64,000 bases of DNA from an uncultured Chloroflexia bacterium (GTDB taxonomy: Bacteria > Chloroflexota > Limnocylindria > Limnocylindrales > CSP1-4). Below, one piece after another: positions 29,681-38,871 of the stretch. Position 1 is the stretch's first letter, and each line of letters begins with the position of its first letter. Position numbers and translations under genes: made by a program. The notes beneath the pieces are model-generated. The model was not told where the DNA came from and did no database searches. It saw nothing but the letters and a program-made list of their open reading frames with translations. The stretch is from the NCBI GenBank assembly GCA_963726055.1, contig CAVSAP010000006.1, positions 1,319,345 to 1,383,344 on the forward strand. Reading direction: 5' to 3'.

Positions 29681-32005
29681 ATGACACGAAGGTGGCGACT
29701 ACTGCGCATCCGCATGCCGACGATCGCAGGCGTCTGCTCTCCAGCCTGGGAGGGCTCGCCGTTCGGCATCGCTTTCCTGAACGCCGACGGTCATGTCGTC
29801 GACAGCAACGAGGCCATGCAGTCGATCACAGGCTACGACGCGGACGAGCTCGCGCTGATGCCGGTCGCGAAGCTACACGCACCCGGACGACAATCCGGAG
29901 AGCGTCGCGAACTTCCGCCGGCTCATCGCCGGCGAGACGGACTCGTACCGGCTCGAGACGCGACTCATCCAGAAGGACGGCGGCGCGGTCTGGGTCGACA
30001 GCTTCGTCACGGCGAGGCAGGAGGCGCCCGGCGCCCCGCGGACCGCACTCTCGATGGTCCAGGACATCACTTCGCGCAAGCTTGCCGAGCTGGCGTTGCG
30101 CGACCAGAACGCCCGCCTGTCGCGCGTGGTGGAGACCCAGGCCGAGATCGCCGCCGCCGACCTCGAGCTCGACGGCGTGTCGCAGCTGATCGCCAAGCGC
30201 GCGCAGGAGCTGACCGGCGCCGACGGCGCAATGGTGAGCATCCTCGACGGCGACGAGCTCTTGACCGCGGCGGCGATCGGAAACAACGCATCGGCGGCTC
30301 GGATCAGCGTCCCGCTCCTCCATCGGCGGGCGAAACGTCGGCTCGCTCAGCGTGGCGAAGGAGGCAGGCGTCGACGACGAGGATTGCCGCACGCTGGAGT
30401 TGCTCGCAGTCCTCCTCTCCATGGCTGTGAGCGTGGCTGCCGAGCGCGAGGCGCGACGCGAGCAGGTCGAGGCGCTCGCGCGCTTCGAGACCATCTTCGA
30501 GCGGGCGCCGATCGGCATCGGCCTCGTCAGCCTGGACGGCCGGCTGGTGAACACGAACTCGGTCATGCGCGAAATCAGCGGCCGGAGCGCGGAGGAGCTC
30601 GCGAGCCGGAATGTGGGCGAGTACACGGTGCCCGAGGACGTCGACCGCGTGGTCGAGCTCTTCGTGGCGATGCTCAACGGAGAGCACGACTCCTACCGGC
30701 ACGAGCATCGGCTCTACTCCAAGGACGGAGAGATCGTCTGGGTCGACTCGGCCACCGTGCTGCTGCGCGACGCGGACGGGAAGCCGCAGGGCGCTGTCTC
30801 GATGGCGCAGAACATCACGCAGCGCCGGGCCGCCGAGGAGCAGCTCCGTCAGTCGCAGAAGATCGAGGCGATCGGCCAGCTCACCGCGGGCATCGCGCAC
30901 GACTTCAACAACCTCCTGCTCGGAATGCTCGGCTACACCGAGCTGGCGCAGGCCGAGGTCGACGCTGACGGCCAGGCGGCCGAGTACCTGCGCCGGATCG
31001 AGTCGAGCGCGCAGCGCGCCGCCACGCTGACGGGCCAGCTGCTCGCCTTCGGCCGGCGCCAGGCCCTCCACCCGCGAGCCGCTCGAGCTGAACGCGCTCG
31101 TCTCCGAGACGGTCGCGATGCTGCGCCGCGTCCTCGGCGAGCGGATCGAGCTCTGACGGTGCTCGACCCCGCGCTCGATGCGGTTCGCGCCGACTCCGGC
31201 CAGATGCAGCAGGTGCTCCTCAACCTCGCGCTGAACGCGCGCGACGCGATGCCCGACGGCGGCACGCTGACGATCCGGACGAGCAACGCCGAAGTCGGTG
31301 CCGACGATCCTCGCAGCCTCGAGCTCGAGCCCGGACGGTACGTCGTCCTCTCGGTCGAGGATCAGGGCTGCGGGATGACGCGCGAGGTCAGCGACCGGAT
31401 CTTCGACCCGTTCTTCACGACCAAGAGCGTCGGCAAGGGGACCGGCCTCGGGCTCTCGAGCACGTACGGAATCGTGAAGCAGAGCGGCGGCCACATCGAG
31501 GTCGTGAGCGAGCCGGGCCGGGGCAGCACGTTCGACAGCTACCTGCCGGCCGTTCCTGCCGCGGCGCTCGCCGAGGCGAGAGCCCGTGGCGCCGGAGCCG
31601 CCGCGGGCGCTCAGCCAGGCGCCGGAGGGCGCCGGCCGCCGGATCCTCGTCGTCGAGGACGAGGAGGTCGTGCGGACACTGCTCGCACGGACGCTCGAGC
31701 GGCTCGGCTACGTGGTCGAGACGGCGGAGGAGCCCTCGGTGGCGCTGCCGAAGCTCCGCGAGCGCGGCGACGAGTTCGCGCTCGTGATCTCCGACATGGT
31801 GATGCCGAATACGACCGGAGCCGAGTTCGCGCGCCAGGTCGCGGAGTGGAAGCCCGAGCTGCCGTTCATCTTCATGTCCGGCTACACGGAGGACGTCGTT
31901 GCGCAGTCGGGTGCCGCGGGGTCGTTCCTGCAGAAGCCGTTCACCTCGGAGATGCTCGCGAGCACCGTGCGCGAGGCGCTCGAGCGGTCCGCCAAGCCCG
32001 CCTAG
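29681..32005 (+). pseudogene. hybrid sensor histidine kinase (PAS-GAF-PAS-HisKA-HATPase-receiver), at least 5 frame breaks
   Basis: H-box AHDFNNLL, N-box LNLALNARDAM, G-box GTGLGLS, receiver ILVVEDEE...DMVMP. Breaks lie near 29878, 30325, 31075, 31155 and 31580. The start is uncertain. Confidence 0.75.
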
Positions 32006-32009
32006 GCCT

Positions 32010-33699
32010 TAGATCAGGCGGATGCCCGTGACGCGGCGGATCTCGTCGATCGAGGAGATGCCTGCCAGCGCGATGCGCATGCCGTCGTCGCGGATCGTCG
32101 TCATTCCCTGGCGCATGCGCGGCAGCAAAGATCTCGGCTGCTGAGGCCTCGACGAGCGCGCGGACCTCGCCCTGCACCGTCATTACCTCGCGCAACGCGA
32201 TCCGGCCCGAGTACCCCGTCCCGTTGCATTGCGCACAACCCACCGCGGAGTAGAGGACGACCTCGCCCAGAATCTCCTTGGCGCTCTTGAGGCCGAGGTC
32301 TCTCGACTGCGCCGTATACGGGCTGCGGCATTCAGTGCAAAGCCGGCGGGCAAGCCGCTGCGCGACAACGCTGTTCAGCGAGCTCGCGATCAGGGAAGGG
32401 TCGACTCCCATGTCGCGGAGGCGCGCGATCGCGCTCGCGGCGTTGTAGGCGTGCAGGGACGTCAGGACGAGGTGTCCGGTCATCGCGGCCTGGATGGCGA
32501 TCGACGCCGTCTCGGCATCGCGGATCTCGCCGACGAGGAGCACGTCGGGATCGCTACGCAGGATCGTGCGGAGGCCGCGCGCAAAGCTCAGTCCACCCTT
32601 GACGTCGACCTCGATCTGGTTGATCCCGTCCAGCCGGTACTCGACCGGATCCTCGATCGTCATCACGACGCGTTCCGGTGTGTTCAGATGATCGACTGCG
32701 CCGTAGAGCGTCGTCGTCTTTCCGGAGCCGGTCGGGCCGCACACGATCACGGCGCCGTAGGGCTGCTCGATCGAGGTCTTGAACGCCTCCTCGCGCCATG
32801 GCCTCCATCTCGAGCTCGGCGAGCGTAGGTGTCCGGTCGCCGCGGCCGAGGATCCGCAGCACGATCTGCTCGCCGTGGGTGGTGGTGAGAACCGCGATCC
32901 GCAGATCGATCGGGCCGGAGCCGAAGAACGCTGAGACGCGCCCGTCCTGCGGCGAGCGCCGGTCCGCGATGTTCAGCTTGCCCATGATCTTCAAACGGCT
33001 GGCGACCGCGGGCTGCATGTGCTTCGGGATCGTCGCGAGCTCGCGCATCACACCGTCGACGCGGATGCGAACGATCATCTCATTGCGCTGCGGCTCGAAA
33101 TGAATGTCCGAAGCTCCCTCTTCGACTGCGGTTCTGAGCAAGGAGTTGACGAGGGTGATCGTTGGCGCGCTCGAGGCCATGTCGCGGAGGTCGTGAACCA
33201 CCTGGTCCTCGCTCGCGGCGGTCTGCTCGGTGTCTTCGGCGATCAGCTCGAGCGACTGCCGGTACGCCCGTGAGATCGCCAGGTCGATCTGCTTGCGCTC
33301 TGCGACCGCAAGCCGGAAGTTCGCCCCGAGAGCGAAGCGAAGGTCGTCCGCGTTCGCCAGGTTGGTGGGGTCGGTCACGGCGAGCAGCAGGACCCCGTCG
33401 TCGAGAATCCTGATCGGCAGCGCCTCGTAGCGGCGCGCGAGCGTTTCGGTCAGGAGGGCGACTGCGTCGCGATCGAGCTTCAATCCCTCCAGGTCGACGT
33501 ATTCGAGGCCGTACTGCTCCGCGAGCGCGCCTGCGATGGCGCGCTCCGTCGTGAAGCCGAGCTCGACGATGATCTCGCCGAGGCGCTTTCCGCTCTCAGC
33601 CTTCTCGGCCAGGGCGAAATCGAGCTGCTCCTGCGTCAGCACGCGGCCGTCGGTGAGCAGGCGGCCGAGCGGGACCCAGGTGAGCCCGGGGACGATCAC
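32010..33699 (-). pseudogene. GspE/PilB-family secretion ATPase, two frame breaks
   Basis: N-terminal MshEN-like domain (LGEIIVELGFTTERAIAGALAEQYG), Walker A GPTGSGKTTT, tetracysteine CTEC...CAQC. Breaks lie near 32790 and 32125. The true stop, TAA at 32010-32012, is reached only after the second break. Confidence 0.8.
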
Positions 33700-33864: not shown

Positions 33865-34866
33865 CTAGCCTGTCGCCTCGTACTGCGCGAGGACCGTGAC
33901 CCCTGCGGAGGCGGCGCGGTCGATCGGGATCGGGCTGACTCCGGACGAGGCGCTGAAGTACGCACGGACGCCGGGGAGCATGCCGCCGGCGCTGCTGTAG
34001 CCCTTGCCGCCGCCGAGCACGGCGCCGCTGGCGTCGAAGACGACGGTGAAGACCGTCGCGCTCGAGAGCAGCTTCGTCGGATGGTCGTTCGTGATCTGGC
34101 CGACGACTGCCCCGACCCAGCCTGGATCGTAAAGCGCCTGCTGCACCAGTACGTCCGAGGTGGCCGGGCCGAGCTTGGCCGCCAGGTCCTGGCCGCCGAT
34201 CCGCGTAATGATCTCGAGCGTGGAGACCGGCGTGCTGTCCGGAATCGAAGTCGCGCCGCCGAGATAGAAGTCCGTACCGGCGCCGACGGCCCCGATCAGC
34301 TCGCTCTGCGTCGCGACGACGCGATTGGTCGAGTCGATGAAGTTGACGATCACCGAGACGCCGAGCGCGTCCTTCTCAGGAGAGTCGTTCGAGAGCACGA
34401 TCCCATAGCTGACCTCGCGCTGAATCGAGCGAACGCGCTGCGAGAAGCCGCTCTTCTTGACCACGACCCTGGCGGGCGCTGCGGGTGGCCCGACGACCGC
34501 GAAGCTCCGCGTGACCTTGCCCGCACGACCGCACTTGACGGTTGCACTGGCGGAGCCGATCCGCGCCTTCGCGGGAATCTTGAAGGTCCAGGAGGCGCGA
34601 TTGCCGCGGGCGATGGTTGGCTTGAGCGCCTGGGTCGCTCCGTTCGCGTAGCGGATGGTCGGGACGCAGCGCACGCCGCTAGGGCGCGCGGTCACCGACA
34701 GCGAGGCTGGCTGTCCCTGGAAGGCTTTCTGGGGAAGGAAGCGGAAGCCGACGCTCGAGCCGGCGTCAACAGCAGCCCCGGCAGAGGTGGTGAGAATGAG
34801 CCCTAAGAAAGCGGCTACGAGAACTGGGCGAGCGTGCACAGGAAAACCTCCATGGGGGAATTTCAT
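33865..34866 (-). CDS. secreted hypothetical protein
   Basis: MKFPHGGFPVHARPVLVAAFLGLILTTSAGAA signal-like N-terminus. Good GC3 throughout and no recognisable domain. The start could instead be 34935. Confidence 0.5.
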   Translation of the reverse strand: MKFPHGGFPVHARPVLVAAFLGLILTTSAGAAVDAGSSVGFRFLPQKAFQGQPASLSVTARPSGVRCVPTIRYANGATQALKPTIARGNRASWTFKIPAKARIGSASATVKCGRAGKVTRSFAVVGPPAAPARVVVKKSGFSQRVRSIQREVSYGIVLSNDSPEKDALGVSVIVNFIDSTNRVVATQSELIGAVGAGTDFYLGGATSIPDSTPVSTLEIITRIGGQDLAAKLGPATSDVLVQQALYDPGWVGAVVGQITNDHPTKLLSSATVFTVVFDASGAVLGGGKGYSSAGGMLPGVRAYFSASSGVSPIPIDRAASAGVTVLAQYEATG

Positions 34867-35027
34867 TTTCAGACCGTGCCGCCATGACGGATCTTGTGCG
34901 TCGCTGAGCGCGTGGGCATCCCCCTTCAGAGTCATCTTCCTTGTTACAACCAATACGCGGAATTGGGGATCCCCCGCGGGCGAACGTGGGCATCGACGCG
35001 GGGGGCGGTCCGGACGACTATCCGAGC

Positions 35028-36200
35028 ATGATGATTGAGCCTGCGGCGCTCACCTTGTCGGCCCCCACCGACCTCCAACTCCCACCCGTCACCGACATCG
35101 GTCGCGACGACGGTCTTGCGCTGGTGGAGAAGCAGGTCGTCGCCGCCGAGCAGGCGGTGACCGATTCGCGGTACGACGATGCGATCGCCTTGCTCGGTGA
35201 GGTGTCGATCGCCCCCGCGCAGTACCCGGATCTCGCGCTGCGAGCGCTCTTTGCCGGCTCCTGGGCGCGGATGTACCGCGGCGAGCTGGACGAGGCGCTG
35301 ACGATGCTGCAGACCGCGAAGGAGGTCGTGCACCGTCCGGGCTTCAACGACCTCGACCGCGCGCAGGTGCTCTGCCGGATCGGCGCTGTCCGCGTCAAGC
35401 GCGGAGCGATCTCGAGAGCCATCAACGACCTTTCCCTCGCGCTCGAGCTCTGCGAGCGCTCAGGCCGACCGTGCGACCGCCTCCGCGCTGAGATCTACGA
35501 CTGGCGGTCGCGCTGCTACCAGCGTCAGCGAGACTTCAACGCCGCGCGCGCCGACGTCGAGGCCGCGCTCGAGCTCGCCGACAGCATCAGCGACACGATC
35601 GTCGCGGCGGACATCAACTTCCGCGCCTCGTCGATCGCCGAGCGCGAAGGCAAATGGCTGGTCGCACGCACCTACGCAGAGCGCGCCAAGGATCTCTACG
35701 AGCAGGCCGGTGACCGGGCCAACGTGGGCCGCGTCCTGAACGATCTCGGTGGGATCCTGTTCCTGCTCGGCAAGCACGACGAGGCGATCGACTACCTCAA
35801 GGAATCCGTGTCCGTGCTCTTCGATGCTGCCGGCGACGTCGAGACCGGTTACGCCGTCTCCTCGCTCGCGCAGGTGTATCTGCGAACCGGCGACGCCACG
35901 CGCGCCGAGGAGCAGGCTCAGATCGCCCTCGGTCTGCTCGATGGCCGTGAGGACGTCCTCGAGGAGATCGGCAACGTCCAGCTCGTCCTTGGGCGTGCAC
36001 TGAGCCAGCTCGAGCGGCTCGACGAGGCCGAGGATGCGTTCGCGGCCGCAGAGGCATCGTTCTCGACCCGCGAGTCGATCAGCCTTCTCGCCGCCGCCTG
36101 GATGGCGCGCGGCGAGCTCGCCTCAGCCCGCGAAGACTCTGTCAGTGCTGCTGCGCTCTATCGCAAGGCGGCCGAAGCCCTCCAGGACTTCTACTTCTAG
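35028..36200 (+). CDS. TPR-repeat protein (~390 aa, no DNA-binding domain), Rap-like in size and layout
   Basis: Intact ORF with repeated 34-residue-like helical pairs (e.g. AEIYDWRSRCYQRQRDFNAARADVEAALELAD; VGRVLNDLGGILFLLGKHDEAIDYLKESV). The start is uncertain (ATG 35028 or GTG 34986). Confidence 0.6.
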   Translation: MMIEPAALTLSAPTDLQLPPVTDIGRDDGLALVEKQVVAAEQAVTDSRYDDAIALLGEVSIAPAQYPDLALRALFAGSWARMYRGELDEALTMLQTAKEVVHRPGFNDLDRAQVLCRIGAVRVKRGAISRAINDLSLALELCERSGRPCDRLRAEIYDWRSRCYQRQRDFNAARADVEAALELADSISDTIVAADINFRASSIAEREGKWLVARTYAERAKDLYEQAGDRANVGRVLNDLGGILFLLGKHDEAIDYLKESVSVLFDAAGDVETGYAVSSLAQVYLRTGDATRAEEQAQIALGLLDGREDVLEEIGNVQLVLGRALSQLERLDEAEDAFAAAEASFSTRESISLLAAAWMARGELASAREDSVSAAALYRKAAEALQDFYF

Positions 36201-36215
36201 GAAGGAGGTACCACC

Positions 36216-36311
36216 TTGCGAAAGATCACACCCCTCTCTGTTCTGATCTTCCTCGTCACGAGCGCCGCCTTCCTTGCGAAGGTCAAGTACGGCTTCTTCG
36301 GCGGTAAGTAA
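36216..36311 (+). CDS. 31-codon small ORF: signal-peptide-like hydrophobic N-terminus plus KVKYGFFGGK tail
   Basis: Not in the ORF track because it is too short. GAAGGAGG (36201-36208) is followed 7 nt later by TTG 36216. The product is MRKITPLSVLIFLVTSAAFLAKVKYGFFGGK with stop TAA 36309-36311. GC3 is about 83% (25 of 30 codons). Confidence 0.5.
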   Translation: MRKITPLSVLIFLVTSAAFLAKVKYGFFGGK

Positions 36312-36330
36312 CTCCCCACGTTCCTCGCGC

Positions 36331-36378
36331 GGGGTCGGGATTCTCGGAAGCGGATCCCGATCCCGCCACCCCCTTTTT
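36331..36378 (+). terminator. hairpin followed by T5 after the small ORF
   Basis: TCGGGAT/ATCCCGA stem (36335-36341/36354-36360) with flanking GGGGT/ACCCC, then CCCCCTTTTT ending at 36378. Confidence 0.4.
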
Positions 36379-36440
36379 GGCCCACCTCGCGGCTGCTGCT
36401 CACTCTGCGGTCTATCCGAACTCCCCAGGAGGTTCCCTAC

Positions 36441-37133
36441 GTGCTTCGCACTCCCCTTCGTACTGCGCTCGTCTCGATCGCTGCGGCTCTCACTGTGGTG
36501 ACATCCGCCGCTGCGATCACCGGGTCGACCCCGGACGGTGAAGCACATCCTTATGTCGGCGCGCTCGTCATCGATGGGTCGGTTGCCTGTTCAGGCGTGT
36601 TGATCGCTCCCAATGTCTTCGCGACCGCCGGCCACTGCGGCGCGGACGGCACCCGTGTCGAGGTCAGCCTCAACTCCAAGCTCGACGACAGCTGGACCCT
36701 CGTGCAGGGGACCCTCGAGGTGGACGCCGCCAGGCGTTCCGACCTCGCCGTGGTGGTTCTCGATGCTGCGTCCGTTGTCGCACCGGCCGCTCTGCCAACG
36801 GCCGACTCGGTGGCCACGCTCCGTCGCAAGGACGTCGTCACGAGCGTCGGCTACGGCTACTCGAGCCAGGCCGCGGACGGCAGCTGGGTCTACGACGGCC
36901 TTCGGCGCGTCGCCGACTCGCCCGTCGTCGACGTCACCAGGAAGATGCTGAAGATCTCGACCAGACGGGCGGGCCCGTGCATGGGCGACTCCGGCGGACC
37001 CCAGCTCAGGGGCAACGTCGTCCTCTCCGTGACGTCCGGCGGTCCGAAGGACTGCACGGGCCGCACCGAGGGCTATCGCCTCGATACGGCGTCCGCGCGC
37101 ACCTTCCTCGAGCAGTTCGTCACGCTTCCGTAA
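36441..37133 (+). CDS. secreted trypsin-like (S1) serine protease
   Basis: SD AGGAGG (36427-36432) before GTG 36441. Signal peptide present. Catalytic triad contexts are TAGHC, DLAVV and GDSGGP. Confidence 0.8.
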   Translation: MLRTPLRTALVSIAAALTVVTSAAAITGSTPDGEAHPYVGALVIDGSVACSGVLIAPNVFATAGHCGADGTRVEVSLNSKLDDSWTLVQGTLEVDAARRSDLAVVVLDAASVVAPAALPTADSVATLRRKDVVTSVGYGYSSQAADGSWVYDGLRRVADSPVVDVTRKMLKISTRRAGPCMGDSGGPQLRGNVVLSVTSGGPKDCTGRTEGYRLDTASARTFLEQFVTLP

Positions 37134-37137
37134 CGCC

Positions 37138-37195
37138 GGCGCGAGCAGCATCGTCGAAGCGGCATGGAAATGTTGCCGACGGTGCTGCTCGCGCC
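37138..37195. terminator. bidirectional terminator: perfect 13-bp stem with an inner hairpin
   Basis: GGCGCGAGCAGCA (37138-37150) pairs with TGCTGCTCGCGCC (37183-37195). The inner hairpin is CGGCA-N9-TGCCG. It sits between convergent genes. Confidence 0.55.
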
Positions 37196-37201
37196 GATCT
37201 C

Positions 37202-37354
37202 TTAGCCGCGCGGCGTCCCGGCGTCGCAGTGCTGGGGCTCTCCCTCGCAGCAGCCGAGCTTCAGGCGACAGCGTGGGCACTGCCAGGTGCCGTGGCGCCA
37301 GTCCATCGCCGCGCTGCAGCGGAGGCAGTGCTCGACGGCGACCGTTTTCTCCAT
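37202..37354 (-). CDS. small Cys-rich zinc-ribbon-like protein (50 aa)
   Basis: MEKTVAVEHCLRCSAAMDWRHGTWQCPRCRLKLGCCEGEPQHCDAGTPRG carries CxxC...CxxC. The SD is weak (AGGGG). Confidence 0.35.
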   Translation of the reverse strand: MEKTVAVEHCLRCSAAMDWRHGTWQCPRCRLKLGCCEGEPQHCDAGTPRG

Positions 37355-37364
37355 ACCCCTGAGC

Positions 37365-37424
37365 GTAAAAGAGACCCCGGACGGGGCCTCCGCAAACGCA
37401 ACGGGCGCCCACGAGAGGGCGCCC
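37365..37424 (-). terminator. two tandem hairpins downstream of the 21-codon ORF
   Basis: GGGCGCCC-ACGAGA-GGGCGCCC (37403-37424), then GAGGCCCCGTCCGGGGTCTC (37371-37390) followed on the minus strand by TCTTTT. Confidence 0.45.
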
Positions 37425-37436
37425 GGTTTCGTCGTC

Positions 37437-37502
37437 TTAGAGGAGCCAGACCAGCAGAAGGATGACGACAATGAGCGTAATGAGACCGCCACCGATGTAC
37501 AT
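37437..37502 (-). CDS. 21-codon hydrophobic peptide ORF
   Basis: Not in the ORF track. AGGAGG, then 5 nt, then ATG (37500-37502). The product is MYIGGGLITLIVVILLLVWLL, with stop TAA. Two hairpins lie downstream. Confidence 0.45.
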   Translation of the reverse strand: MYIGGGLITLIVVILLLVWLL

Positions 37503-37586
37503 TCGGGCCTCCTGTTTTTTGATTGACGCAGCTACAACGTCCGAGGCTGGGGAGGGGTTACGGAGGGGTCGCTACGATGGCGCGGC

Positions 37587-37657
37587 GGCGCCGTGGCCGA
37601 GTGGTTAGGCAGAGGCCTGCAAAGCCTCGTACAGCGGTTCGAGTCCGCTCGGCGCCT
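37587..37657 (+). tRNA. tRNA-Cys (GCA)
   Basis: Manual cloverleaf: acceptor GGCGCCG/CGGCGCC, D-arm GCCG-AGTGGTT-AGGC, anticodon arm GAGGC-CTGCAAA-GCCTC, 4-nt variable loop, T-arm AGCGG-TTCGAGT-CCGCT, discriminator U73. CCA is not encoded. Confidence 0.95.
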
Positions 37658-37786
37658 CTCTTGCCTGAGGAGCCGCTCCTCCTCAACGGACACGTTGCCG
37701 GAGTCGCGGCCGAACTGCAGATCCTGCTCTTGAGTTATGCGAACGAACGCCGACTGTTGCCGTTGTTGCCACGCCGGTAGGCGACG

Positions 37787-37981
37787 CTAGGGCATTCGGC
37801 AGACGATCTTGCCCGCGTACGGCCCGTTGCCGGGCGACGCATCCGTCTGCGTCACCAAGCACGTTCCGTATTTGGTTTCGATCGTCTCGCCTACCCCCGG
37901 GAGCCGCGGAAGCTCGACGTCCTGGACGTCTTTCCAGTCTGGCGTCTCAATCGTGATCATGAACCGTTTGATGGTCCACAT
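37787..37981 (-). CDS. hypothetical small protein (57-64 aa)
   Basis: MITIETPDWKDVQDVELPRLPGVGETIETKYGTCLVTQTDASPGNGPYAGKIVCRMP. No SD and no recognisable motif. It lies 37 nt downstream of the 38018 gene. Confidence 0.3.
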   Translation of the reverse strand: MWTIKRFMITIETPDWKDVQDVELPRLPGVGETIETKYGTCLVTQTDASPGNGPYAGKIVCRMP

Positions 37982-38017
37982 AATGCAGGACGACGTGGCC
38001 GGCCGTTCCTGCCTTCC

Positions 38018-38269
38018 CTAGGTGTATTTCACGTTCACACTTGAAATCACACGAGTGCCACGGTCTCGCACGGCGCGGAGTGTCGGGTCCCAACCCCCCG
38101 AGGCGTTGATCATCAGGTAATTGGTGAGGTGACCGTACTCGTGCGCCGTCGTGCCGCGCGGTGGCGGCTTCTTTGACGCGCCCGCCGATGCGACGGGCGC
38201 TGCCGAGACGGCGAGCGCCGTGATGGCGGCGAGGATGCTGAGTGAGCGGATCATCACGTTGCCTGTCAT
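38018..38269 (-). CDS. small secreted protein (83 aa) with an HEYGH motif
   Basis: SD GGGAGGAAG before ATG 38269. MTGNVMIRSLSILAAITALAVSAAPVASA is followed by GASKKPPPRGTTAHEYGHLTNYLMINASGGW... The leader is nearly identical to that of the 27563 gene. Confidence 0.45.
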   Translation of the reverse strand: MTGNVMIRSLSILAAITALAVSAAPVASAGASKKPPPRGTTAHEYGHLTNYLMINASGGWDPTLRAVRDRGTRVISSVNVKYT

Positions 38270-38385
38270 GACTTCCTCCCTTCGTTGATGTCCCTGCTCG
38301 CTTGGACACCGGGGAGGGGCTGCGCATTCCCGCGCATCGTCGTTCGAGCCGGTCAACCTACGCCGGAATCCGCTAAAGTCCGTTC

Positions 38386-38871
38386 ATGTCCCAGATCGTC
38401 CTCTACACGGCGAGCGAGGTCGCCGAGCTGCTGCGCCTGAACCATCAGGTCGTGCAGCGGAAGCTCCAGGCAGGAGAGATCCCGGGATACCGCATCGGCC
38501 GCGACTGGCGGGTCGAGCAGTCGCAGCTCATGGACTGGCTCGAGAAGCACTCCAACCAGCGGCGCACCACGTCGGACGCCGAGAAGGTGCTTCGGGCCTT
38601 CCTCGACGATGACGGCCGGCTGCGCTCGATCCCCGTCTCGCGCGCCAAGCGGGCCGTCGTCCTCGAGTACCTCGCGGACCAGCTCGAGGCCAGCCGGACG
38701 TACCGCGAGCGTGATTTGAACGCGGTGTTGCGGCGGTTCCACGACGACGTCGCGACGCTGCGGCGAGAGCTCGTCGGCGCCAAGCTGGTCGTGAGGACGA
38801 CCGCCGGCGTCTACAAGCTTGCAGCCAGGAGCGACGCACGACGCTCGGCCCGCTCGCTACGGAAGGTCTAG
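38386..38871 (+). CDS. excisionase/MerR-type HTH fused to a DUF2087-like domain
   Basis: LYTASEVAELLRLNHQVVQRKLQAGEIPGYRIGRDWRV is an excisionase-family HTH. The C-terminal LRSIPVSRAKRAVVLEYL...YRERDLNAVL resembles DUF2087. Confidence 0.6.
   Translation: MSQIVLYTASEVAELLRLNHQVVQRKLQAGEIPGYRIGRDWRVEQSQLMDWLEKHSNQRRTTSDAEKVLRAFLDDDGRLRSIPVSRAKRAVVLEYLADQLEASRTYRERDLNAVLRRFHDDVATLRRELVGAKLVVRTTAGVYKLAARSDARRSARSLRKV

Follow-up and report, generated by a model that had tools for sequence, protein, structure and literature searches.

In a 64,000-nucleotide stretch of contig CAVSAP010000006.1, which was analysed as a whole and is called the window below, a three-gene cassette encodes a tetratricopeptide repeat (TPR) protein of nine repeats without a helix-turn-helix (HTH) domain, a pro-peptide of 31 residues and a secreted S1 serine protease. 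As judged by sequence, its layout matches that of the peptide quorum-sensing pairs so far described in Firmicutes only. Comparison with related loci suggests that the cassette is likely a clade-specific derivative of a two-gene module, receptor plus pro-peptide, found throughout the Gaiellales and Thermoleophilia, and we lean towards the view that this pair works as a peptide-sensing module in the manner of the RRNPP receptors. An earlier note on this DNA had called the cassette Rap/Phr-like. Comparative genomics upholds the part of that description which concerns a TPR receptor with an adjacent pro-peptide gene, while homology to Rap is unsupported. The elements that the note had listed, that is the TPR open reading frame (ORF), the Shine-Dalgarno (SD) signal, the TTG start, the 31 codons, the hairpin, the T5 run and the protease, were all confirmed in the sequence with their coordinates (Table 1).

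The comparison used 80 receptor loci from species-representative genomes, with receptors 48-100% identical to the window protein, and 30 receptor loci from metagenomes, which were examined for the small ORF and the protease. The receptor usually occurs once per fetched genome, and two metagenome-assembled genomes (MAGs) gave two loci each. Related loci carrying the small ORF are labelled Gaiellaceae, Gaiellales or Thermoleophilia throughout. The window is 97.7% identical to contig CAWJYW010000019.1, from a MAG of an uncultured member of the Gaiellaceae (order Gaiellales, class Thermoleophilia, Actinomycetota), and the differences between the two within the TPR gene are mostly at third positions.

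The small gene downstream of the receptor

Is the small ORF behind the TPR gene a real gene? It follows the receptor stop by 15 nt on the same strand. The SD signal GAAGGAGG is followed by 7 nt and the start codon TTG (36216-36218), the stop TAA lies at 36309-36311, and the product is (M/L)RKITPLSVLIFLVTSAAFLAKVKYGFFGGK, of 31 aa. The GC content at third codon positions, given as about 83% in the earlier note, was measured as 0.81, and that of the TPR gene as 0.86. In 74 of the 80 genome loci a small ORF (28-80 aa), whose product starts with a basic n-region followed by a hydrophobic leader, lies 5-105 nt past the receptor stop. The other six comprise two leaderless mini-ORFs, three loci without an ORF, one of them with a disrupted receptor C-terminus, and one contig end. 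The same arrangement is found in 28 of the 30 metagenome loci. The conserved downstream micro-ORF for which the earlier note had proposed to look is therefore present, led by an SD signal in the 74 loci and leaderless in two more. The signal (A)AGGAGG(TG) stands 6-9 nt ahead of the start in about 70 of the 80 loci, and the start position is homologous across relatives, with ATG, GTG or TTG as the codon. In three relatives with receptors 83%, 75% and 65% identical to that of the window (L001, L003 and L004), other pipelines annotate a gene of 31-36 aa directly downstream, the products being LRKITPMSVLVFLVTSAAFLAKVRYGFFGGK, VRKLTPITVLLFLVSTAAFLGKAKYGYSLDGFFGGK and MHKLTPMAALMALVAAAAFVAKVKYGFHTGN; in the annotation of CAWJYW010000019.1 the micro-ORF is not called as a gene. 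Against close relatives its ratio of nonsynonymous to synonymous differences (pN/pS) is 0.15-0.29, which indicates purifying selection. By these comparisons the micro-ORF is a real conserved gene and the arrangement is far beyond chance; an SD signal and a small ORF recur at the same place down to 48% receptor identity.

Programmed readthrough, which would fuse the TPR ORF to the micro-ORF (the two share a frame in the window), was considered and rejected. Each micro-ORF has its own SD signal, and the stop-to-start offset of 16-26 nt in relatives takes all three phases, which excludes readthrough.

The peptides are built alike. A Lys/Arg n-region leads into a core of 15-19 hydrophobic residues, then comes a spacer whose length (0-35 residues) and composition are both hypervariable, and the last element is a hexamer, G-[FLM]-x-[DGH]-G-x, at 0-4 residues from the C-terminus. 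Among distinct peptides the hexamer is GFSDGR in 13, GFPDGP in seven, GFFDGH in five, GFQHGH in five and G[LMF]WDGP in nine, besides others; in the window clade it is GFFGGK/H or GFH[DVT]G[RNH]. The strict motif ends 59 of the 80 focal ORFs, compared with 15 of 7694 background ORFs (0.2%), which are those of 20-80 aa from the same 80 loci with the focal ORFs set aside. The enrichment is about 380-fold, and within the window the ORF at 36216-36311 alone ends in the motif. The earlier note had made its proposal depend on a conserved C-terminal tail, and the tail is there, together with a signal-like leader, which speaks against a mere anchor. The window peptide has the n-region MRK, a hydrophobic core of 15-16 residues, candidate cleavage sites TSA/A or SAA/F (a slash marks the cut here and below) and the tail AKVKY-GFFGGK. 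Longer forms show, by inspection, canonical AxA signal-peptidase sites, as in MLRKMFSLGALVVVAVTFGVGNASA/QPKK..., ...VGNASA/QPKK and ...GAGPAAA/KPS, and the GFSDGR class has textbook sites. In four precursors (L054, L055, L057 and L063) there are two or three copies of the hexamer, as in ...QQGFSDGRLAGGFSTGGFSDGRLVR, and a tandem pair of peptide genes is found at L030 and at L052. Phr-type pheromones, too, are known to have repeated units and duplicated pro-peptide genes (PMC11343458). On a neighbour-joining tree the tail classes of the peptides track the receptor clades. Taken as sequence, this is how an exported pro-peptide would be expected to look if its C-terminal hexamer were the functional unit.

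Two HTH-type loci encode nothing but a leaderless mini-peptide in which the motif is preserved: MLVKAYSDGH, of 10 aa, 19 nt past the receptor stop in L072 and MADSVREGFHDGR, of 13 aa, 135 nt past it in L029. These 10-13-residue peptides bring to mind the leaderless communication peptide class known from RopB-type systems (PMC10518010).

The receptor family and known peptide receptors

The TPR protein is read from ATG 35028 to TAG 36198-36200. The earlier note had described it as an all-TPR protein of about 390 aa without an HTH, and this holds at 390 aa. Pfam gives TPR_12 (8.6e-23), TPR_2 (6.6e-17), TPR_1 (1.3e-13) and TPR_MalT (5.1e-12), all above their cut-offs; the matches are all of the TPR class, with no HTH among them, and the longest possible N-terminal extension from upstream starts adds no DNA-binding or other domain. 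Two AlphaFold2 (AF2) receptor models are confident (pLDDT 88.9 and 90.8) with about nine TPR pairs each, and that of the window protein (88.9) has 18 helices and a disordered stretch at residues 1-26. More than 100 database homologs are 65-100% identical to the window protein, and every named source is Gaiellaceae or Actinomycetota. A profile search of 1.84 billion representatives gave 390 at E <= 1e-30, the distant ones being unnamed metagenomic proteins. Relatives of the receptor were absent from the viral contigs searched. An origin from a mobile element or phage was rejected on this ground and on that of the housekeeping genes around the loci.

Did the family always lack a DNA-binding domain? 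Homologs at 48-56% identity carry an XRE HTH. The receptors of L016-L084, with ORFs read to their 5' ends, are about 445-460 aa long and have an N-terminal XRE/Cro-type HTH (e.g. ...LGERVRQLRIARGLTQTELAGERFSKEYVSQIERGKTRPT...), except for a few that are cut by a contig end or broken by an apparent frameshift. HTH_31 and HTH_3 score above the Pfam cut-off, together with TPRs, in all six distant homologs tested. The HTH-TPR form is abundant in soil metagenomes, with at least 7694 proteins at E <= 1e-10, and its members are named in their sources as 'XRE family transcriptional regulator' or 'TPR protein' of Gaiellaceae. On the neighbour-joining tree the HTH-less receptors (L005-L015 and about 20 metagenome loci) form one clade. 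The relatives outside the window clade have the HTH, therefore the family is one of regulators with an HTH and nine TPRs beside a pro-peptide, which is the RRNPP signature. The sequences thus indicate a family-wide module of an XRE-type HTH, about nine TPR pairs and a downstream pro-peptide gene, and the window protein appears as a Rap-like derivative from a clade that lost the HTH.

In the HTH-less receptors a conserved N-terminal tail, MIEPAALT..LPPVTD, takes the place of the HTH, and AF2 predicts it to be disordered. Within these residues 1-26 (35028-35105, EPAALT...LPPVTD), P19, P20, V21 and D23 are invariant in 16 HTH-less sequences. The tail could serve to dock an output partner, or it could occupy the groove of the receptor itself as a pseudo-ligand with an autoinhibitory effect.

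How far does the pair agree with known systems? The RRNPP signature has been given as five points: a pro-peptide of 10-100 aa, its secretion through Sec and signal peptidase I or by SHP-like PptAB export, a receptor of 250-500 aa, TPRs detectable by hidden Markov models, and direct neighbourhood of the two genes (Bernard et al. 2023, PMC10075063). Four of the five are found here. The peptide has 31 aa in the window and 28-68 aa in relatives, the receptor 390 aa in the window and 445-460 aa in HTH-bearing relatives, the TPRs are detectable and the genes adjoin. The fifth, secretion, is plausible for the pro-peptide from its sequence.

The earlier note had counted a match to generic scaffold TPR families alone as grounds against its proposal, and the match is indeed of this kind: Rap, NprR and PlcR all come below LGN/Pins and designed TPRs. 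A phmmer search against PDB sequences gave LGN/Pins and designed TPRs, and no RRNPP protein. A family profile against the same sequences reached PlcR (6.5e-5, HTH part only), RapJ (6.6e-4) and another Rap (3.8e-3). With the two models, Foldseek against the PDB placed generic TPR superhelices first and had NprR, RapI, RapJ-PhrC, PlcR-PapR and phi3T Rap in the top 50. The template-modelling scores for query and target (TMq, TMt) are 0.61 and 0.75 for NprR (5dbk_B) and 0.62 and 0.74 for RapI, and TMq is 0.56 for RapJ-PhrC. This ranking of RRNPP proteins is suggestive, not discriminating. Structurally closest are TPR superhelices whose solved structures have a linear peptide in the groove, above all LGN/Pins (TMt about 0.8; 4wnd_A has TMq 0.71, TMt 0.83 and a root-mean-square deviation of 3.2 Å). 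The eight TPRs of LGN/Pins form a superhelix whose inner groove takes up extended linear peptides, but the protein is a eukaryotic scaffold and biologically unrelated, so that the similarity shows only the fold. The models thus predict a canonical peptide-binding TPR superhelix in the size class of NprR and Rap. Membership of Rap, NprR or AimR by sequence was rejected, generic TPR and HTH similarity being all that the searches gave. By fold, too, the TPR domain is generic, and the data speak neither for nor against common ancestry with RRNPPA. The generic match blocks the statement that the protein is a Rap, but not the statement that it works like Rap/Phr.

Among the closest known systems are NprR/NprX and QssR of RRNPPA clan B in Bacillota, with non-degenerate HTH-9TPR receptors and a neighbouring gene for a Sec-exported pro-peptide. 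Like these the wider family has an N-terminal XRE-type HTH and about nine fairly canonical TPR pairs, and in both the receptor adjoins, on the same strand, a small SD-led gene for a peptide with a signal-like leader and a short conserved motif near the C-terminus. The differences are that the family here belongs to Actinomycetota (Thermoleophilia/Gaiellales), that its motif G-F-x-D-G-x is new, and that family-specific sequence similarity is absent, generic TPRs scoring higher.

The window protein itself shares features of form with Rap. It is an all-helical TPR protein of about 390 aa without an HTH, from a monophyletic clade amid HTH-bearing relatives, as Rap receptors derive from an HTH-bearing ancestor. 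Both have the pro-peptide gene directly downstream with a short unit at the peptide C-terminus, which in Phr is a penta- or hexapeptide freed by extracellular proteases. Secreted serine proteases are implicated in maturation of Phr, a role for which the protease here is likewise a candidate. HTH loss has been described as the founding event of Rap, within the non-degenerate HTH-9TPR clan of NprR, QssR and Rap (PMC12700828). However, the window protein gave no match to Rap-specific models and no sign of the Rap-like N-terminal three-helix bundle or of phosphatase or anti-activator targets, Rap proteins acting on response regulators such as Spo0F or ComA, and it has instead the disordered 26-residue tail followed by TPR-like helices. 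The window protease lies inside the cassette and is of the S1 family with a chymotrypsin-type pocket, not a subtilisin. In Bacillus, subtilisin, Epr and Vpr are not known to be linked in this way. Unlike Phr, the window pro-peptide is essentially without a spacer. Rgg/SHP, PrgX/cCF10 and RopB/SIP offer a further likeness, since several peptide classes here have 28-32 aa, are mostly hydrophobic and have a presumed active part at the C-terminus. Their receptors differ in being of the five-TPR type with degenerate repeats, and these systems rely on PptAB for export of the peptide and on Eep for its processing; no PptAB or Eep genes are linked at the loci here and no sequence similarity to Rgg, PrgX or RopB was found.

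The HTH-type loci have a feature of their own. A conserved element, AAGTCAAGTRGnnTTGTGAAGT, also written AAGTCAAGT..TTGTGAAGT, lies upstream of HTH-TPR genes once per locus, with TATAGTTCAC about 16 nt further on and the start codon about 10 nt beyond that. It was seen in L018 (5684-5705), L019 (5690-5711), L025, L026, L031, L033, L034, L037, L044, L048, L052, L079, L108 and L110. The element resembles a -35/-10 promoter for a nearly leaderless mRNA, and its overlapping direct GT(C/G)AAGT repeats are candidate operators for autoregulation. With up to 3 mismatches allowed, the window has no match to it, so the element is of no help in understanding the HTH-less cassette.

The protease, the proposed mechanism and its rivals

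The third gene encodes a protein with a Pfam Trypsin match (E = 1.9e-19, 70.8 bits against a cut-off of 20.6) whose relatives in the PDB are factor D, trypsin and kallikreins. Its N-terminus is signal-like and ends AAA/ITGS, where cleavage would itself yield an N-terminus of the Ile16 type. The catalytic triad His57/Asp102/Ser195 is intact in the window protease and in 17 of 18 orthologs. The S1 pocket was read from an alignment of the 18 orthologs with chymotrypsin. Positions 189 and 216 are both Gly, and position 226 is Gly, Ala, Ser or Thr, with G189/G216/G226 in the window. Trypsin has Asp at 189, and trypsin-type specificity needs it. Without Asp189, and with Gly216 and a small residue at 226, the pocket is therefore predicted to be uncharged and chymotrypsin-like, not trypsin-like. 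By its sequence the protein belongs to peptidase family S1 in fold, without trypsin-type specificity. The earlier note had spoken of a trypsin-like protease with its own SD signal and signal peptide. The S1 fold, the SD signal and the signal-like N-terminus stand, and the pocket does not fit the name.

Among the HTH-less loci, an S1 protease gene stands 3' of the peptide gene in 7 of the 11 from genomes and in 15 of the roughly 17 from metagenomes that have enough flank, and it was never found beside HTH-type receptors in either set. In a tblastn comparison of all window ORFs with the 79 other genome loci, the receptor was found in 79, the protease in six, a PilB-like ATPase in five and an upstream secreted protein of 324/362 aa in six. 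In the HTH-less clade the cassette thus looks effectively like a three-gene operon. The suggestion of a dedicated processing protease is accordingly to be narrowed: the protease is linked in the HTH-less clade, but it is not part of the family-wide module.

What could such a protease do? The residue ahead of the hexamer is Tyr in all 23 protease-linked loci (...KVKY/GFFGGK); two HTH-less loci that lack the protease have Phe or Asp there, and of 49 distinct HTH-type peptides only 4 have an aromatic residue in this position. This pattern fits a protease that would free the hexamer by a cut after Tyr. The enzyme might also cut after Phe residues within the hexamer.

Taken together, a mechanism may be proposed as follows. 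Receptor and pro-peptide would be co-transcribed and co-translated, of which the gene layout is the part that is directly seen. The pro-peptide would then be exported through its signal-like N-terminal leader, as the relatives with textbook AxA sites suggest, and the C-terminal hexamer G-F-x-x-G-x, GFFGGK in the window, would be released. In the window clade the co-encoded chymotrypsin-type protease may do this by cutting after the invariant Tyr, KVKY/GFFGGK. The candidate substrates are the pro-peptide or AFLAKVKYGFFGGK, in which a cut at Tyr/Gly would leave GFFGGK intact. The short peptide would be re-imported and bound in the concave TPR groove, as may be expected from the architecture and from the closeness of the fold to peptide-binding superhelices. 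Among relatives with an HTH, the bound peptide would act as a switch of DNA binding, and in the HTH-less window protein the output would be a protein-protein interaction, as for Rap, or sequestration of the peptide.

Several points weigh against a working RRNPP-type module. No RRNPP-specific Pfam or NCBIfam model matches the receptor, and PADLOC likewise gave just generic TPR/HTH; in the profile search PlcR, RapJ and Rap rank far below designed TPRs (CTPR), LGN and KLC. The receptors are unusually strongly conserved, at 65-100% identity over hundreds of metagenomic proteins, mostly single-copy and chromosomal, with none on viral contigs, in which they are unlike the NprR and QssR systems. Typical RRNPP systems diversify fast and often lie on mobile elements. 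The match of peptide classes to receptor clades and the correlation of Tyr with the protease are both confounded by shared ancestry. In the window peptide the 15-16-residue core stands without a spacer and with Lys/Arg on both flanks, and the peptide could remain as a membrane anchor. No oligopeptide permease (SBP_bac_5/Opp) was found in the 64-kb window, a result that hardly bears on the genome outside it.

The short and hydrophobic build of the peptide leads to the rival that deserves most attention, that of a stable single-pass membrane protein which stays uncleaved, is co-regulated by the TPR protein or tethers or modulates it, and holds the hexamer outside the cytoplasm or near the membrane with no signalling role. 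The window peptide and several classes have only 28-32 aa, with a core of 15-19 residues and hardly any spacer, the positive charges flank the core of the window peptide on both sides, and the conservation of the receptor looks like that of a housekeeping regulator rather than of a fast-evolving pherotype system. However, relatives have clear AxA leaders, long low-complexity spacers and sometimes the same hexamer two or three times, and such variable spacers and repeats are hard to reconcile with an anchor tail at a fixed distance from the membrane. The leaderless ORFs of 10 and 13 codons keep the motif alone. What is more, a cytoplasmic TPR protein could not reach an extracytoplasmic tail, and the n-regions left to it in the cytoplasm have 3-12 residues. 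We regard this explanation as unlikely.

A leader with a conserved C-terminal core, repeated in some precursors, is also what one would see in a secreted effector of bacteriocin-like kind or in the precursor of a ribosomally synthesized and post-translationally modified peptide (RiPP). The HTH-TPR protein would then be a mere regulator, or the TPR protein a maturation scaffold, with no feedback sensing. The protease next to the gene in the window clade would agree with this, as would a weak NCBIfam match to the RiPP-associated TPR protein HaaT, but at 32 bits against a cut-off of 1125 the latter is generic TPR similarity. No conserved modifying enzyme (radical SAM, cyclase or YcaO), dedicated ABC exporter or immunity gene lies near the loci, and the leaders are Sec-like, not of the double-glycine or RiPP recognition type. 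A RiPP pathway as such was rejected, with no modifying enzymes in any neighbourhood examined, and the wider explanation seems to us quite improbable. Might there be no functional link at all, but a generic TPR scaffold, a chance 31-codon ORF and an unrelated protease? The TPR domain is indeed generic in every sequence and fold comparison, and the micro-ORF is uncalled on the public contig. But the ORF, its SD signal and its start position are kept down to 48% receptor identity, the ORF is under apparent purifying selection, its motif stands about 380-fold over background, other pipelines annotate it as a gene in three related contigs, and about 80% of HTH-less loci have the protease alongside. 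On these comparisons the explanation is effectively refuted. What probability remains beside these three and the sensing module was assigned to mechanisms outside all of them.

A larger scenario joins several claims: that the family works as peptide quorum sensing, that it is a true deep relative of RRNPPA and, with its non-degenerate TPRs, a candidate outgroup, and that the window clade replays the NprR-to-Rap transition independently, by losing the HTH and gaining a chymotrypsin-type maturation protease that cuts after Tyr to release GFFGGK. We hold this conjunction to be doubtful as a whole.

The earlier note took RRNPP systems to be described just in Firmicutes and their phages, and peptide quorum sensing through cytoplasmic TPR receptors is indeed treated in the literature as peculiar to Bacillota and their mobile elements (PMC10075063, PMC12700828). 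A full-text literature search covering Actinobacteria/Actinomycetota, Gaiella, Thermoleophilia and Streptomyces agrees with it in finding no RRNPP-type system reported outside Bacillota. The RRNPP_detector paper screened Firmicutes and viruses and describes Actinomycetota as typically using small-molecule signals (PMC10075063). A structural-phylogeny paper of 2025 treats RRNPPA as a family of Bacillota, leaves open its root and the number of TPRs in the ancestor, five or nine, and names a remote outgroup as a way to settle the root (PMC12700828). If the sensing module is real, it would extend RRNPP-type signalling logic to a second phylum, in a dominant and almost uncultured lineage of soil Actinobacteria, and would provide predicted peptide 'codes' (GFFGGK, GFSDGR, GFPDGP, G[LM]WDGP and others) ready for synthesis for binding, reporter or cultivation work. 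It would also supply a candidate remote relative with a non-degenerate HTH-9TPR architecture that bears on the RRNPPA root, and a second, independent change from a DNA-binding receptor to a Rap-like HTH-less one, coupled to its own protease.

The cassette in its neighbourhood

Table 1. Features of the cassette (positions in the window)
Feature	Position	Strand	Basis
Receptor candidate, 390 aa, about nine TPR pairs, cytoplasmic	35028..36200	+	Translation, Pfam, AF2, homologs
SD signal GAAGGAGG of the micro-ORF	36201..36208	+	Sequence; directly 3' of receptor stop
Pro-peptide gene, 31 codons, TTG start	36216..36311	+	Translation, ortholog calls, pN/pS, motif statistics
GC-rich hairpin (36329-36366) and T5 (36374-36378)	36329..36378	+	Folding
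SD signal AGGAGG of the protease	36427..36432	+	Sequence
Secreted S1 (chymotrypsin-fold) serine protease, 230 aa, GTG start	36441..37133	+	Pfam Trypsin, ortholog alignment

The hairpin between the peptide and protease genes has a 15-bp stem and a minimum free energy of -31.2 kcal/mol, with z = -2.5 against dinucleotide shuffles. In CAWJYW010000019.1 the hairpin is kept and the T5 run is absent, and a simple terminator scan did not call the site at 36329-36378. It is probably a partial terminator or attenuator. About half of the HTH-less loci also have hairpins here, with differing sequences; in the rest the SD signal of the protease lies 20-50 nt past the peptide stop. Ahead of the protease CCAGGAGGTT is conserved in related loci.

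Beyond the pair of receptor and peptide, no neighbour is conserved across loci. The genes around HTH-type loci are unrelated housekeeping genes (acetyl-CoA synthetase, MFS, TetR, UvrC, SOD, CBS and lysyl-PG-synthase-like), with no ABC exporter, Opp, radical-SAM enzyme or protease among them. On the upstream side of the window cassette a divergent gene (33865-34953, minus strand) encodes a protein of 324-362 aa with a signal peptide and, as its sole family match, a weak one to the FxLYD domain, which adjoins the receptor in six of the closest loci together with the PilB-like ATPase. A link to a type IV pilus or secretion was considered and placed outside the module, since the ATPase and the secreted 324-aa protein are kept in only 5-6 of the closest loci. 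In the window the PilB/GspE-like ATPase (MshEN c-di-GMP-binding domain and T2SSE) falls into two ORFs that overlap (31941-33699, minus strand), but the public contig has it whole, at 581 aa (L085, 7020-8765). A PAS histidine kinase has 559 aa in the window (30352-32031, plus strand) and 769 aa in the public contig (4714-7023). By comparison of the sequences, both discrepancies are frameshift-type differences between two sequence versions.

Downstream of the cassette further small ORFs are found. Relatives have a second conserved micro-ORF, MEMLLTVLLVLMIPGLLTYL(V/R)PE..., of 30-35 aa, hydrophobic and with an acidic tail, which sits past the protease or past the first peptide gene (L001, 7053-7148; L003, 6317-6424; in L013 just after the receptor gene). 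At 37165-37206 (plus strand) of the window it is cut to 13 codons, reading MEMLPTVLLAPIS and stop in the window and MEMLLTVLLVLIS and stop in the public contig, and it looks like a decaying remnant. A hydrophobic ORF of 21 codons, MYIGGGLITLIVVILLLVWLL, lies behind GGAGG at about 37440-37505 on the minus strand and is followed by a 9-bp GC terminator-like hairpin (37425..37402, minus strand). This mini-gene is also found downstream of the receptor in L013 and L015, and it may encode a small membrane protein or be a type-I-toxin-like gene. At about 37202-37351 on the minus strand, and also in L015, there is a Cys-rich ORF of about 50 aa, MEKTVAVEHCLRCSAAMDWRHGTWQCPRCRLKLGCCEGEPQHC, which is zinc-ribbon-like with two CxxC pairs and has no Pfam or NCBIfam match. 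Just past the cassette lies a tRNA-Cys(GCA) gene at 37587-37658 (plus strand). An indel of about 1.4 kb adjoins it (window 37660-38400, L085 12672-14064), where the public contig has collagen-like and GerE-type genes that the window is without, and an HTH_17/DUF2087 gene stands at 38386-38871. From this comparison the tRNA-Cys region looks like a tRNA-adjacent variable or integration spot.

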